Source: Candidatus Poribacteria bacterium (GTDB lineage: Bacteria > Poribacteria > WGA-4E > WGA-3G). From it: 64,000 nucleotides of DNA. The first letter of the stretch is position 1, and the number at the start of each line of letters is the position of its first letter. The stretch is taken from positions 580 to 64,579 of the forward strand of contig JAPPES010000080.1 of assembly GCA_028824125.1 (NCBI GenBank), written 5' to 3'. The position numbers and the translations under genes were made by a program. The notes beneath the pieces are model-generated. The model was not told the origin of the DNA. It saw only the letters and a list, made by a program, of their open reading frames with translations, and did not search any database. Of the stretch, positions 3,923 through 60,845 are shown piece after piece.

Positions 3923-4723
3923 ATGAATCGAATTGACAAAAAATTTCAGCAACTCCGACAGCAAGGTGTCAGCGCATTTATGCCGTATCTCTGTGCAGGA
4001 GACCCAACACCTGAGTTAACCGCGAAACTCCTCCTTACGCTTGAACAAGCAGGTGCTGACCTCATAGAACTCGGTGTCCCCTTCTCCGACCCAATAGCAG
4101 ACGGGCCGACTATTCAACGTGCCAGCGAACGTGCACTTAAACATCAAATCTCTCTCCAACAGATTCTTGAGATAGTGAAAACACTCCGCCAGCAAACAGA
4201 CATTCCCATCGCGTTGATGAGTTACTATAATCCGATCTTTAGTATGGGGGAATCAACATTTTGCCAAGCAGCACAAGATGCAGGCGTTGATGGAATAATC
4301 GTACCAGACCTACCGCCAGAGGAAGCACAACCACTTTTACAAGTTGCACCACAACATAACCTCGCTACTATCTTCCTTGTTGCGCCGACAAGTCCATCAG
4401 AACGGATGCAAAGTATCGCATCAGTCAGTACTGGATTTGTCTATTGTGTTTCGTTAACTGGCGTAACAGGGGTTCGGGCAACGTTATCAAACGAAGTAGC
4501 ACCGATGATAACAGAACTCCGCAAGCACACACCGAAACCGATCAGCGTCGGTTTCGGTGTGTCCACCCCTGAGCAAGCAAAACAGGTTGCAGTAGTCGCT
4601 GATGGCGTTATTGTGGGGAGTGCTATTATCAATGTGATTGAAAAACATAAGGATGACGAATCAAAATTGCTTACTGCAGTAAAACAGTTTGCATCAGAAT
4701 TGGCGGTAGGTGTGAAAGCATAA
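3923..4723 (+). CDS. trpA: Tryptophan synthase alpha chain
   Basis: MNRIDKKFQQLRQQGVSAFMPYLCAGDPTPELTAKLLLTLEQAGADLIELGVPFSDPIADGPTIQ and the rest are typical TrpA at 266 aa. I prefer ATG 3923 over the track start 3812, which would add 37 atypical residues. No trpB is adjacent. Confidence 0.9.
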   Translation: MNRIDKKFQQLRQQGVSAFMPYLCAGDPTPELTAKLLLTLEQAGADLIELGVPFSDPIADGPTIQRASERALKHQISLQQILEIVKTLRQQTDIPIALMSYYNPIFSMGESTFCQAAQDAGVDGIIVPDLPPEEAQPLLQVAPQHNLATIFLVAPTSPSERMQSIASVSTGFVYCVSLTGVTGVRATLSNEVAPMITELRKHTPKPISVGFGVSTPEQAKQVAVVADGVIVGSAIINVIEKHKDDESKLLTAVKQFASELAVGVKA

Positions 4724-6403: not shown

Positions 6404-7003
6404 CTATTGATCTTCAAGTGTCTTTCGCAACTTATGTGTTGATGTCGCAAGCGACTCTTGCAAATATGGATATGGAAAACCTCCCCATCGGTCAGGTGGT
6501 GGTTCATGGGCTTTTGCTATCTTTAGACTCACAAAAATTGGACCCTCTTGGTTCCAAATTTTTGGGAGAGCGGTTTCAAGTGTCTCTATATCATCAAATT
6601 CATAAACTTGCTCAAAACCTGTCCCCTTCGCAATTGTTGTCCAACTAAAGTCAGCATTTCGCGGAACAGGTTGATTTCCAGTAACCTCATAAGTGCCATT
6701 ATCACAGACAAAAAGAAGATAGTTCGCAGGTGGTTTTTGCAAACCTGTAATCGTTGCGAGTGTACCTAAACACATCAGCATACTCCCATCCCCGTTAAGC
6801 ACGACAACCTTCTTTTCAGGTTTTGCGAGCGCAATACCGAGTGCGAAATCCGCAGCGTGTCCCATCGCACTTCCAACAGAGGCGTAGTCCAATGGATGCG
6901 TTGATATTTTAGCCCACGGCACGCTCATCCCCATCGTGGTTATAACGATTTCGTCTGTTCGCTGCGATGCAATAAGTTTTAGACACTCCTCTTTGATAAG
7001 CAT
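6404..7003 (-). CDS. TPP-binding beta subunit of a sulfopyruvate/phosphonopyruvate decarboxylase-like enzyme (orphan)
   Basis: 199 aa. ..VVVLNGDGSMLMCLGTLATI...FVCDNGTYEVTGNQ.. is the GDG-(x)-NGxY-xTGNQ thiamine-pyrophosphate binding signature of ComE/Ppd beta subunits. No alpha (pyrimidine-binding) subunit is adjacent. Confidence 0.7.
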   Translation of the reverse strand: MLIKEECLKLIASQRTDEIVITTMGMSVPWAKISTHPLDYASVGSAMGHAADFALGIALAKPEKKVVVLNGDGSMLMCLGTLATITGLQKPPANYLLFVCDNGTYEVTGNQPVPRNADFSWTTIAKGTGFEQVYEFDDIETLETALPKIWNQEGPIFVSLKIAKAHEPPPDRWGGFPYPYLQESLATSTHKLRKTLEDQ

Positions 7004-28111: not shown

Positions 28112-29568
28112 GCAATACCCTCTCTCCAAATGATCAAGTTAGAGTCCGTATGGCACCGTCTCCCACCGGCTACTTACACATCGGCGGCGCGCGAACGGCT
28201 CTCTTCAATTGGCTGTTTGCCAAACACCATAACGGCAAATTTATCCTCCGAATCGACGATACGGACACGGCACGTTCCACTGATGAATCCATGCACGAGA
28301 TTTACGATGCGTTGAAGTGGTTGAGCATCAATTGGGACGAACATTATGTCCAGTCAGAACGGAGAAATGTCTATGACAGGTACGTCAAGCAATTGCTTGA
28401 AAGCGGCAATGCCTACCACTGCTACTGCACACCTGAAGAACTTGAAGAAATCCGCGCACAGGCTCGTGCCAATAAACAGACCCGTTCCTACGATAGAAGG
28501 TGCCGAAATTTGACGCCTGAAGACGTAGACCGCTTTGTCGCCGAGGGCAGAAAACCGACCGTGCGCATAAAAATGCCCGACATACCAATTCACGTCAATG
28601 ACCTTATTCTCGGTTCACGTAACATTGATCCAGCTACCCTTGAAGACGAGGTGATTGTCCGTTCAAATGGCATGCCGAACTACAATCTCACCTCTATCAT
28701 TGACGATGCAGAGATGCAGATAACGCATGTCATCCGAGGAACAGAACATCTCAATAACACTCCGAAACAGATTGCGATTGCGAATGCGCTTGATCTGAAA
28801 CTTCCCCAATTCGCACACATACCACTCGTGCTTGATGATACTGGAAGAAAACTCAGCAAACGTCACCACGGTGATCTTGTCGCAGTCAACCGCTATCGTG
28901 AGCAGGGGTATCTACCCGAAGCGATGCTCAATTTCGTTGTGAGACTCGGTTGGTCCTATGACGATAAACAGGAAATCTTTTCTGTTGATGAATTGATTGA
29001 AAAATTTGACCTTGCACGGGTCGGCAAAAGTGGTAGTGTGTTTGATATCAAGAAATTAGAGTGGCTCAACTCTCACTATATTAACCAGCTTGATGTATCG
29101 GCACGCACAGACGCAGTAATACCGTTCTGGAAACAAGAAGGTTTGGTAGATTCTACTACAAACCGCGATTGGTTGGAAAACATTGTGGAAGCAGTAGGTG
29201 AACGTCTTACAACATTCCAAGATATTGTTCCACAAACTCGCTATTTCTTTACGGATGATTTTGAGTATGAGTCGAAAGCCGTTAAAAAATGGTGGGGAGG
29301 TTCAGACGAAAAGAAGCAAAAAACCCGTGAGATACTTACAAATCTTGGGCAGATTTTAGAAAAAATCCCTACTTTCGACGTGGAAACGATTGAGTCAGCA
29401 ATTTGGAAATACACTGATGAAAACGACATCAAACGTGTCGCGGCAATGCAGGCATTGCGAATCGCGCTGACAGGAACATCGTTCGGCCCGAGTCTCTTTG
29501 ATATTGTCCTGCTGCTCGGCCAAGATGAAGTTTTCAAGCGGATTCAAAGGGCAATAACTTGCCTATAA
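28108..29568 (+). CDS. gltX: Glutamate--tRNA ligase
   Basis: [39 protein letters not shown]...ILRIDDTD is the GluRS N-terminus. The ATG at 28108 overlaps the glnS stop as ATGA. The track start at 28015 lies inside glnS in another frame. Confidence 0.9.
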
Positions 29569-59568: not shown

Positions 59569-59760
59569 TGAAACAATTTCCTCTCAATTCCGGTGGATAT
59601 GGATATTTGCAGTCTATGCCAACTATCCAGCTCAGTCGTCTCCTGAACATTGCCCGTTTCCGTTCATACCCAAAGTGTGGGCGAACGCTTCCAAAGTTTC
59701 TGCGCGTACACTGTGTCACACAACTACTTAAGGCTGTGAACATCATTGAGGGACATTGCG

Positions 59761-60054
59761 TCATCCCCCTCGTTCAGAAAGACGGTATATCTTTGCTTGT
59801 AAGCGTTGGTAGTGAGCGTGTTGTTTTTCAGTTGGCTCTTCATCAGCAAGGGCAGCGGCAACATACAATGCCTCGCCGTTATAGAAGAAATCTTGCTGTA
59901 ACAGAGGTAGATTTTCAATTTCTTGTTGGTAATCATCCGCCTCGCTTGGCGATCTATCAAAGATGTCGCTCAGAGATCTACGAACTAACTCCCAATAAGC
60001 ATCTACGTGGCTGCGGGGCAAGGAGACGTTGGGTTCTTTCACAGGTGCCATTTT
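59761..60054 (-). CDS. Small hypothetical acidic protein (97 aa) downstream of the DUF3990-like gene
   Basis: MAPVKEPNVSLPRSHVDAYWELVRRSLSDIFDRSPSEADDYQQEIENLPLLQQDFFYNGEALYVAAALADEEPTEKQHAHYQRLQAKIYRLSERGG. ATG at 60054 with a GGAGGA RBS 4 nt upstream, 34 nt after the preceding stop. The track's 176-aa ORF 59761..60291 has a low-complexity R/C-rich N-terminus that is probably not translated. Confidence 0.4.
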   Translation of the reverse strand, partial: KMAPVKEPNVSLPRSHVDAYWELVRRSLSDIFDRSPSEADDYQQEIENLPLLQQDFFYNGEALYVAAALADEEPTEKQHAHYQRLQAKIYRLSERGG

Positions 60055-60088
60055 TCCTCCATATAAGACTTGGCTTTGCAAGCCTCCA

Positions 60089-60651
60089 TTACAAAGTATA
60101 GGTTGGTGTTCCTTGGCTATGCAGCACAGGTGCGGGAAGTATTTCCAGCGCGGCTTTCGTATGAAAACTAATCTGGTCCGCATCTTTAATGACGAACTTC
60201 TGCGGCCAAAGCGTAACGGGCCCAAACACAACATCATAATTCTTGTTGCCATGTAGCAAATGTGAGCCCATTTCAGTCCGACAATGCTCAATAAAATTCC
60301 AATAGTCCGGGTTTGATCTATCTGTCACAAAGGACAAATTCAATAAAGGTGCTAACTGGTTCCTATCTACGTCAAATCTAAGTACCACTGCACGCGTTGA
60401 CAATTTAACCCTGCGACGCCTGCGCAGATTCCTGAATTGTCTATCTGCCCAACTTTCTGCTTGTTGTAGAGACGTAGTTAGGTAGAAACCTTGACCGAAA
60501 TCCGTGCGCGCTCTACAAAGTGAATGTCTATGCTATGCGGCAGGGACCCCGAAGGCTGGCACAGAACTGATGCCGCAATATCAGTAGTACCGTGATAAAG
60601 GATAAGGGAACCGTTTGTCCAAGGCACAGATTTTCCTTCTTGGGTGTGCAA
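60089..60651 (-). pseudogene. DUF3990-like gene, apparently disrupted by a 1-nt frameshift and lacking a canonical ATG
   Basis: Frame A (60089..60535) encodes ...TDFGQGFYLTTSLQQAESWADRQFRNLRRRRRVKLSTRAVVLRFDVDRNQLAPLLNLSFVTDRSNPDYWNFIEHCR... A different frame (60505..60651) upstream encodes (L)HTQEGKSVPWTNGSLILYHGTTDIAASVLCQPSGSLPHSIDIHFVERAR. Joining the two at cgcgcacgg(N)gatttcgg (~60507) restores LYHGT...DFGxGFYxT...QAxxWA...DxWxxFI, the N-terminal signature I recall for DUF3990 proteins. The only start candidates are TTG or GTG. Confidence 0.45.
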
Positions 60652-60845
60652 ACGCTATCACTCAGGGATCACTCAAAATTCGATGTGAATTGAGAAAACT
60701 TAAAAAATGAGAGATTTTGATTATGTCTCTCAAAGTTTATCACAAAATTGCGTGAAATATCAAACTATTTCTGTTTAATCCACGATTTAGACATTTGGGA
60801 CGTTTATATCGTGGGATCTGATCGCAAATTAGCAGTTTGCGCCAT

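Follow-up and report, generated by a model that had tools for sequence, protein, structure and literature searches.

A frameshifted DUF3990 gene and its intact acidic partner in Candidatus Poribacteria: a putative, decaying toxin-antitoxin/immunity cassette

Organisation of the Locus

Within a 64,000-nucleotide (nt) stretch of DNA from a Candidatus Poribacteria bacterium, a sponge symbiont (assembly GCA_028824125.1, contig JAPPES010000080.1, positions 580 to 64,579 of the forward strand, hereafter the window), a gene of the DUF3990 family lies in two pieces in different reading frames and is followed, on the same minus strand, by an intact gene for a small acidic protein of 96 amino acids (aa). 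The original prediction had proposed that one inserted base rejoins the two pieces and that the pair forms a toxin-antitoxin- or defence-like module; we refer to the genes as the toxin gene, the word being meant as putative, and the partner gene. A six-frame translation returned both peptide strings quoted in that prediction, on the minus strand and in two frames, one reading ...GKSVPWTNGSLILYHGTTDIAASVLCQPSGSLPHSIDIHFVERARISVKVST up to a stop and the frame one base upstream reading ...SLCRARTDFGQGFYLTTSLQQAESWA...NPDYWNFIEHCR...QGTPTYTL up to a stop. The parts of the cassette are as follows:

60523-60627, minus strand: 5' piece of the toxin pseudogene in the original frame, codons 1-35 (V/M-PWTNGSLILYHGTT...HSIDI), containing the invariant H12 of YHG
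60523-60524, minus strand: frameshift lesion, TT in the window against TTT in intact orthologues (ATT-TCA, Ile35-Ser36), from DNA alignments with loci L001 and L087
60089-60523, minus strand: 3' piece of the toxin pseudogene, codons 36-179 and TAA (SLCRARTDFGQGFYLTT...QGTPTYTL, stop), in the -1 frame relative to the start
60052-60088, minus strand: 37-nt intergenic spacer with GGAGGA at 60060-60055 before the partner ATG, kept in L001, L087 and L083
59761-60051, minus strand: intact partner gene, 96 aa, putative antitoxin/immunity protein (ATG 60051, TGA 59763-59761)

The alignment with the intact syntenic locus L001 shows that a single T is missing (ATTTCA to ATTCA) at 60524/60523, between codons 35 and 36, so that one inserted base does repair the gene, about 16 nt upstream of the position near 60507 that had been indicated. 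The repaired junction reads ...HSIDI joined to SLCRARTDFGQGFY..., where the orthologues have ...HSIDISLCRA(R/H)TDFGQGFY..., and the repaired product is of 179 aa and not of 190 aa. The mechanical open reading frame (ORF) of the 5' piece opens at TTG 60651; its native start is GTG 60627, which aligns with the GTG that opens the intact 179-aa gene in each orthologue checked (L001, L004, L005 and L087). As GTG is the native start in all of these, the missing ATG, first taken for a sign of decay, is uninformative on this point. Past the lesion the 5' piece continues out of register to TAA 60480-60478, and the DUF3990 reading frame is thereby interrupted after residue 35, leaving a 49-aa product in which H12 is present and the Y and D motifs are absent. 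The remaining residues, 36-179, were mapped by tblastn to 60523-60092 at 100%, followed by the stop TAA at 60091-60089; this 3' piece contains the invariant DFGxGFYxT (with Y49) and the invariant Y131-D132.

The pseudogene carries no second lesion, and its ratio of non-synonymous to synonymous substitution rates (dN/dS) against the orthologues, 0.16-0.34, is similar to that between intact copies. For both reasons the loss of the toxin, if the event is real, appears to be recent, as had been proposed, and the window copy reads as an ordinary recent pseudogene of the DUF3990 family. The partner gene encodes MAPVKEPNV...SERGG and is preceded by the GGAGGA motif; the acidic ORF with this motif had been correctly anticipated, its length (97 aa) and its distance from the toxin gene (34 nt) less exactly.

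A DUF3990 Protein with a Predicted ADP-Ribosyltransferase Fold

Over its full length, the repaired protein belongs to the Pfam family DUF3990 (PF13151), with 53.9 bits against a cut-off of 32.2 and an E-value of 2.1e-14, in agreement with the assignment first made by eye. A protein search with the joined sequence gave 77 homologues, all with PF13151, the best being 179-aa proteins with 85-87% identity over 100% of the query; against the intact 179-aa orthologues located at the same trxB/FGGY-kinase locus of related Candidatus Poribacteria genomes, identity is 85-89%. Intact orthologous pairs were found in these related genomes, which bears out the conserved two-gene cassette with a small acidic partner. 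In P0001, from a 5.2-Mb Candidatus Poribacteria chromosome, the gene order is that of the window (methyltransferases, thioredoxin-reductase-like (trxB), DUF3990, 96-aa ORF, FGGY kinase, MoaC, transglutaminase-like), and the region is about 94% identical at the DNA level. The repaired toxin is free-standing and basic, with an isoelectric point (pI) of 9.2; neither it nor the partner matched any NCBIfam model.

DUF3990 is listed in the ADP-ribosyltransferase (ART) clan of Pfam (PMC7955679). The AlphaFold2 model of the repaired toxin, built from 66 sequences, had a mean predicted local distance difference test score (pLDDT) of 89 and a predicted template-modelling score (pTM) of 0.86, and in a Foldseek comparison with the PDB nearly all of its top 50 matches were ART-fold proteins, among them PARP4, an Xre-RES toxin, exotoxin A, ParT, cholix toxin, diphtheria toxin, tankyrases, RhsP2 and MbcT, with probabilities of 0.82-1.0 for the top 30. 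Moreover, in profile matches below threshold (E 0.14-0.3), YHGT and GxGxY fall on the H and Y motifs of PARP10, and the YHGT of H12 also on that of cholix toxin. The DUF3990 toxin is thus predicted to have an ADP-ribosyltransferase fold.

Only 13 columns are invariant among the 66 homologues, and these include H12-G13, D43-F44-G45-x-G47-x-Y49-x-T51 and D132. The invariant H12 lies on strand 1 (YHG) and Y49 on strand 2 (GFY); there is no invariant Glu, and the invariant Y131-D132 precedes the predicted strand 133-140, where the H-Y-E enzymes have their Glu. On the model, H12, Y49 and D132 probably represent an H-Y-D variant of the H-Y-E triad that binds nicotinamide adenine dinucleotide (NAD+). 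An otherwise intact Poribacteria toxin, in L008 (about 4100-4125), carries a one-codon insertion in the invariant DFGxGFY (DFVGQGFY), which may be a subtler inactivation.

A Partner Family Outside Pfam

The partner is acidic (pI 4.8, net charge about -7) and is predicted as a five-helix protein (pLDDT 83). It had no match in Pfam, NCBIfam or PADLOC, and its model gave no meaningful match with Foldseek against the PDB, where the best E-value was 3.9 and HipB and Xre appeared only at E of about 4 with probability 0.05. A word-indexed search with the partner found three relatives only. By iterative searches with a hidden Markov model (HMM) on fetched loci, instead, a partner homologue was identified directly 3' of the DUF3990 gene in 20 of the 20 informative loci of the toxin subfamily, belonging to Poribacteria, Bradyrhizobium, a Bordetella metagenome-assembled genome (MAG), Motiliproteus, Anaerolineaceae and Alcaligenaceae, that is, to several phyla and to unrelated genomic contexts; additional toxin-partner pairs are in L095, L099 and the plasmid locus L101. 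A HMMER scan of 1.84 billion cluster representatives gave 606 family members at E<=1e-3, with the consensus YW..V...L..VF....A....LFYHxEPLxVAADLAG, and the 145 members scanned against Pfam showed no consistent match.

The partner had been thought to be DUF3791 (PF12668), but neither the window protein nor 13 of its relatives matched this family (cut-off 25 bits) even at E<=10, and at E<=0.01 there was no PF12668 match among the 145 family members, whereas true DUF3791 neighbours scored 26-78 bits in the same test. Direct hhalign comparison of the partner with DUF3791 gave a weak signal, in one constant register (probability 3-7%, E 0.005-0.017). Higher values were obtained between the partner and the small ORFs of Rhs type (48-51%, E 1.5-1.9e-4), and between these small ORFs and DUF3791 (95%, E 4e-8). 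When the HMM was searched against sequences, neither DUF3791 nor the small ORFs of Rhs type were linked significantly to the partner, and the weak matches showed only an excess of DUF3791 'downstream' ORFs. From these comparisons, the partner belongs to a sizeable family absent from Pfam, which is not DUF3791 by any curated test; that it is a deep, remote and transitive relative of DUF3791 is probable but unproven.

The partner gene is intact and, with dN/dS values of 0.08-0.19, is under purifying selection; between the window and L083, both of which lack a functional toxin, the value is 0.09, on a path that includes time in which the toxin was present.

Several family members have a different architecture. 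An uncultured Anaerolineaceae (L015, 4514-5380) encodes a partner-family domain (residues 1-72) followed in the same protein by a C-terminal TIR domain (TIR_2, E 9e-23); the putative antidote to an NAD+-using toxin is combined here with a type of domain known to cleave NAD+ and to act in immune signalling. C-terminal extensions of about 100-130 aa are present in the partners of L009 (4547-5149), L010 (4535-5065), L019 (4205-4798) and L101 (3025-3684), from one Poribacteria lineage and a Bradyrhizobium conjugative plasmid; the extension of L009, the sole one scanned, had no Pfam match. On the side of the toxin, the Fictibacillus DUF3990 protein P0077 (L024, 3893-4795) has a C-terminal extension of about 100 aa, whose ...THETALYWAFAIFY region resembles the small ORFs located 3' of Rhs-DUF3990 toxins (hhalign probability 36%, E 4e-4), so that P0077 may be a toxin-antidote fusion.

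The Toxin Gene Decays Alone in Six Lineages

Comparison of the loci revealed that the toxin was inactivated independently in six of about 24 lineages and that the partner is intact in all six. The lesions are the following:

Window and L002: 1-nt deletion
L010: TAA in frame at the start region; no start codon in frame ahead of H12
L019: sequence deleted from about residue 63 onwards
L020: another internal deletion, about residues 64-170
L083-L086: whole ORF cleanly excised, with the promoter block joined to the partner ribosome-binding site
L097 (1964-2488) and L098 (783-1307): TAG in place of TGG at the near-invariant W60 (two assemblies)

L083-L086 are four contigs, among them the Poribacteria record ASZN01000018. 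L097 and L098 represent a distant lineage, seen in GCA_030012865.1 and in an independent Logan assembly, in which the partner P0098 is intact. In the MAG JAAXHI01, an intact cassette (L088) coexists with a decayed one (L019). No locus was found with an intact toxin and no partner, L017 being uninformative as the contig ends there. This asymmetric decay is the prediction for a toxin and its antidote; ordinary cooperating genes would not show such asymmetry.

DUF3990 in Rhs Toxins, on Plasmids and in Candidate Defence Systems

The contexts in which DUF3990 is found elsewhere are consistent with a toxic domain. The PADLOC candidate-defence profiles PDC-M13B (1.3e-16), PDC-M13A and PDC-M10A match the window toxin. 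In loci of the genome collection, proteins of 1370-1485 aa end in DUF3990 as their C-terminal tip and are each followed by a small ORF; both RHS repeats and DUF3990 were confirmed by Pfam in L036 (Cellvibrio) and L072 (Paenibacillus), and an Rhs-DUF3990 protein followed by a small ORF is the classic effector/immunity layout. It has been reported that Serratia Rhs5 has DUF3990 as its C-terminal domain (PMC4524185), and the same holds for Enterobacter RhsA, described in the literature with a DUF3990 C-terminal domain whose function is called unknown there. The plasmid copies of DUF3990 lie mostly on conjugative plasmids (29 out of 33): on pBs5S5b of Bradyrhizobium the cassette adjoins an AbiEii/DUF6088 pair, and on pBF9343 of Bacteroides a zeta-toxin pair. 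The ART clan, the PADLOC profiles PDC-M13 and PDC-M10, the Rhs tips and the toxin-antitoxin neighbours on conjugative plasmids all speak for the toxin-antitoxin- or defence-like nature that had been suspected. The domain is abundant: it occurs in bacteria of the gut, the rumen and soil and in symbionts, and also on conjugative plasmids of Bacteroides, at Rhs toxin tips and in PADLOC candidate defence systems.

Expression Signals and Neighbouring Features

Three further features, all on the minus strand, were recognised around the two genes:

60734-60763, minus strand: sigma-70-like promoter candidate of the bicistron (TTGATA, 18 nt, TG-n-TAAACT)
60634-60638, minus strand: Shine-Dalgarno sequence AAGGA of the toxin gene, 6 nt 5' of the GTG, from reading of the sequence
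59656-59712, minus strand: remnant of a third gene, 19 aa (tblastn 74% identity, E 4e-5; blastn 73 nt, 81% identity)

In a consensus scan the promoter candidate has 9 of 12 matches together with the TG of an extended -10; such sites are no more numerous in the region than in shuffled sequence, and the consensus match alone is not significant. The block is near-invariant among the window, L001, L087 and L083 and is retained where the toxin ORF has been excised. At the position aligned with the AAGGA of the window, L001 has GGAGA. Another side observation on L001 (about 6535-6560) is an 8-bp tandem duplication (ACTTTGTA) directly 3' of the toxin stop, as compared with the window and L002.

The remnant at 59656-59712 matches the C-terminus of an acidic ORF of 110-118 aa, which is intact in L004 (4963-5319) and L005 (4965-5297), where it separates the partner from the FGGY kinase gene; the intact ORF of these two loci had no significant Pfam match. 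By this comparison, a second small gene seems to have been deleted at the window locus; this third gene probably stands outside the cassette. No paralogue of the toxin was found in the rest of the 64-kb window; residues 92-142 of the toxin gave a faint tblastn signal at 29404-29547 (E 0.028), which is probably due to chance. Scans of the whole window for transfer RNA (tRNA) genes, transfer-messenger RNA (tmRNA) genes and Rfam families at gathering threshold returned none.

Possible Function of the Cassette and Alternative Explanations

We consider it likely that the locus is a decaying chromosomal toxin-antitoxin/immunity cassette of the ART type, either a selfish or a defence module. Both genes would be co-transcribed on the minus strand from the promoter near 60763-60734. 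The basic ART-fold toxin would use NAD+, either to ADP-ribosylate an essential target or to destroy NAD+ itself, leading to growth arrest; the target could tentatively be guessed to be a nucleic acid, because of the loop rich in R and K (FRNLRRRRRVK, residues 65-78) and of the strongly acidic partner. The acidic helical partner, in turn, would neutralise the toxin by direct binding, for which mimicry is a reasonable guess. The one-base deletion after codon 35 truncates the toxin before its Y and D motifs, leaving only the partner functional, and the locus would exemplify a repeated course of events: the harmful gene of the module is lost, the protective one retained.

Several observations weigh against this interpretation. 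No experiment on any DUF3990 protein was found, and the literature searched calls the function of the family unknown. The structural matches of the toxin are moderate, with TM-scores of about 0.45 and a best E-value of 2.5e-3, which indicates that no close relative has been solved. The third residue of the candidate triad is Asp and not Glu, and was assigned from the order of secondary structures and from its invariance, not by superposition. No DNA-binding domain was detected in the partner by Pfam, NCBIfam or Foldseek and, since it has neither such a domain nor a structural neighbour, autoregulation in the style of type II systems is unsupported. The window partner has N58 and A61 where at least 90% of the 145 family members have His and Pro (LFYHxEPL); as orthologues with an intact toxin share N58 and A61, these would be a trait of the clade and not linked to decay. 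Finally, an error could be present in the reads of both assemblies in which the frameshift is seen.

This last point leads to the question whether the organism has an undamaged, working toxin gene and the frameshift is a product of sequencing or assembly. The lesion is indeed a single-base indel within a short run of T, in a metagenome-type assembly of an uncultured Poribacteria lineage, and the lack of a second lesion, together with a dN/dS matching that of intact copies, speaks for such an error. A Logan contig from SRR10996927 (L002), which is a separate assembly, has the identical deletion and matches the window at 100% over 4027 bp; an isolated error of the assembler is thereby ruled out, although the two may derive from the same reads. 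Furthermore, a run of three bases is not a typical hotspot of errors, and real loss is to be expected from the five other lineages with unambiguous loss of the toxin, large deletions included. In contigs of the Joint Genome Institute (JGI) metagenomes, an exact pattern covering both the frameshifted and the intact allele had no matches, and a partner-based scan with a narrow alignment returned only a contig already seen. Sequencing error is the less likely alternative, and we regard it as rather unlikely. A different way to save the gene, programmed -1 ribosomal frameshifting or transcriptional slippage that joins both frames in vivo, finds the right direction of shift (-1) and a 43-nt overlap of the frames (60523-60481); it was rejected as very unlikely, to the point of deserving hardly any credit, because there is no slippery heptamer of the X-XXY-YYZ type at or near 60523 (GAC ATT CAC TTT GTA), the homopolymer is of 2 nt only, all the 77 database homologues are single uninterrupted proteins, and the orthologues checked at the DNA level have the extra T.

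Accepting the loss as real, the pair could be read in other ways than as an intracellular cassette. It might be a secreted antibacterial effector with its immunity protein, the kept partner being an orphan immunity against the DUF3990 effectors of neighbours in the sponge; in fact, DUF3990 is a C-terminal toxin domain of Rhs proteins, the small ORFs after these toxins are the best remote relatives of the partner, and orphan partners persist under purifying selection. We find this quite improbable, as the toxin of the window type is a free-standing protein of 179 aa with no Rhs, PAAR, LXG or other delivery domain, no secretion genes are nearby, and its location next to AbiE and zeta modules on conjugative plasmids speaks for a role in toxin-antitoxin or addiction biology. 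It is also conceivable that DUF3990 is a dispensable enzyme, using NAD+ or repairing RNA or DNA, with the partner as regulatory subunit, and that it is lost by relaxed selection: there are ART-fold families with housekeeping functions, Tpt1/KptA among them, and a toxic activity of DUF3990 was not experimentally reported in the literature searched. Relaxed selection, however, would erode both genes, whereas only the ART gene is affected in 6 of about 24 lineages while the dN/dS of the partner is about 0.1; moreover, the use of the domain at Rhs toxin tips and the match to PADLOC defence candidates favour toxicity, and we hold the enzyme to be, if anything, slightly more improbable than the effector.

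Returning to the toxin-antitoxin/immunity cassette, the locus and its relatives offer a comparative-genomic argument for the toxicity of the domain, which decays alone in six lineages; they supply a candidate triad (H12, Y49, D132) that can be mutated, and a second cognate partner family, absent from Pfam, as candidate antitoxin or immunity protein. A bolder proposal, which we put forward only as a tentative possibility with the odds against it, is that the partner represents an unrecognised, widespread family of antidotes to DUF3990 toxins (about 600 clusters at 50% identity), which selection would maintain after loss of the toxin because it provides stand-alone immunity, and DUF3990 a new class of H-Y-D ART toxins. 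If so, the orphan partner could protect against paralogous cassettes of the same genome, plasmid-borne DUF3990 modules, or Rhs-delivered effectors of competitors in the sponge microbiome, and DUF3990 could possibly modify nucleic acids and would serve inside the cell, in toxin-antitoxin or defence modules, as well as in contact-dependent warfare.

Comparison with Known Systems

The nearest relatives are the DUF3990 (PF13151)/DUF3791 (PF12668) cassettes of Bacillota and Bacteroidota, which PADLOC lists as the phage-defence candidates PDC-M13 and PDC-M10. They have in common with the window cassette the Pfam family of the toxin, with its N-terminal YHG(T/S) and DFGxGFYxT motifs, small helical partner genes in tight linkage and the occurrence on conjugative plasmids. 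By contrast, they usually are DUF3791-DUF3990-DUF3791 triads with overlapping genes, while in the window there is one downstream partner of a different family, and the toxins of the two types are only about 27-36% identical. The window toxin is a pseudogenised member of a family that is known but uncharacterised, and the cassette varies the DUF3990/DUF3791 type by having its partner from another family.

The Rhs-DUF3990 toxins (Serratia Rhs5/RhsI5, Enterobacter RhsA, Cellvibrio and Paenibacillus) have the same predicted toxic domain and a small ORF directly 3'. Unlike them, the window protein has no Rhs repeats, PAAR or other delivery module, DUF3990 being its sole Pfam domain, and for this reason it would act, or would have acted, inside the producing cell. 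The H-Y-E ADP-ribosyltransferases (diphtheria toxin, exotoxin A, cholix toxin and PARPs) are the best structural matches of the window toxin, which differs from them in its much smaller size, in the invariant Asp as third residue and in a sequence similarity below significance.

As in type II toxin-antitoxin systems, the two genes are adjacent and co-directional, with a 37-nt spacer, and co-occur as a unit across genomes. The same arrangement, a two-gene module whose toxin is an NAD+-dependent ART-fold enzyme, here only predicted, is found in ParST and MbcTA, where RES-type toxins are paired with Xre-type/MbcA antitoxins, and in DarTG; ParT, MbcT and the Xre-RES toxin are among the structural matches of the window toxin. 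The targets known for these systems are Prs, NAD+ and thymidine in single-stranded DNA, and they are not transferable to the window toxin. The differences are that there is no membership at the sequence level, that the motif is H-Y-D-like against R-E-S, that the toxin gene comes first, and that the window partner is of neither the Xre helix-turn-helix nor the macrodomain type. By analogy, the cassette can be viewed as a functional counterpart of ParST, MbcTA and DarTG that is a member of none of them.

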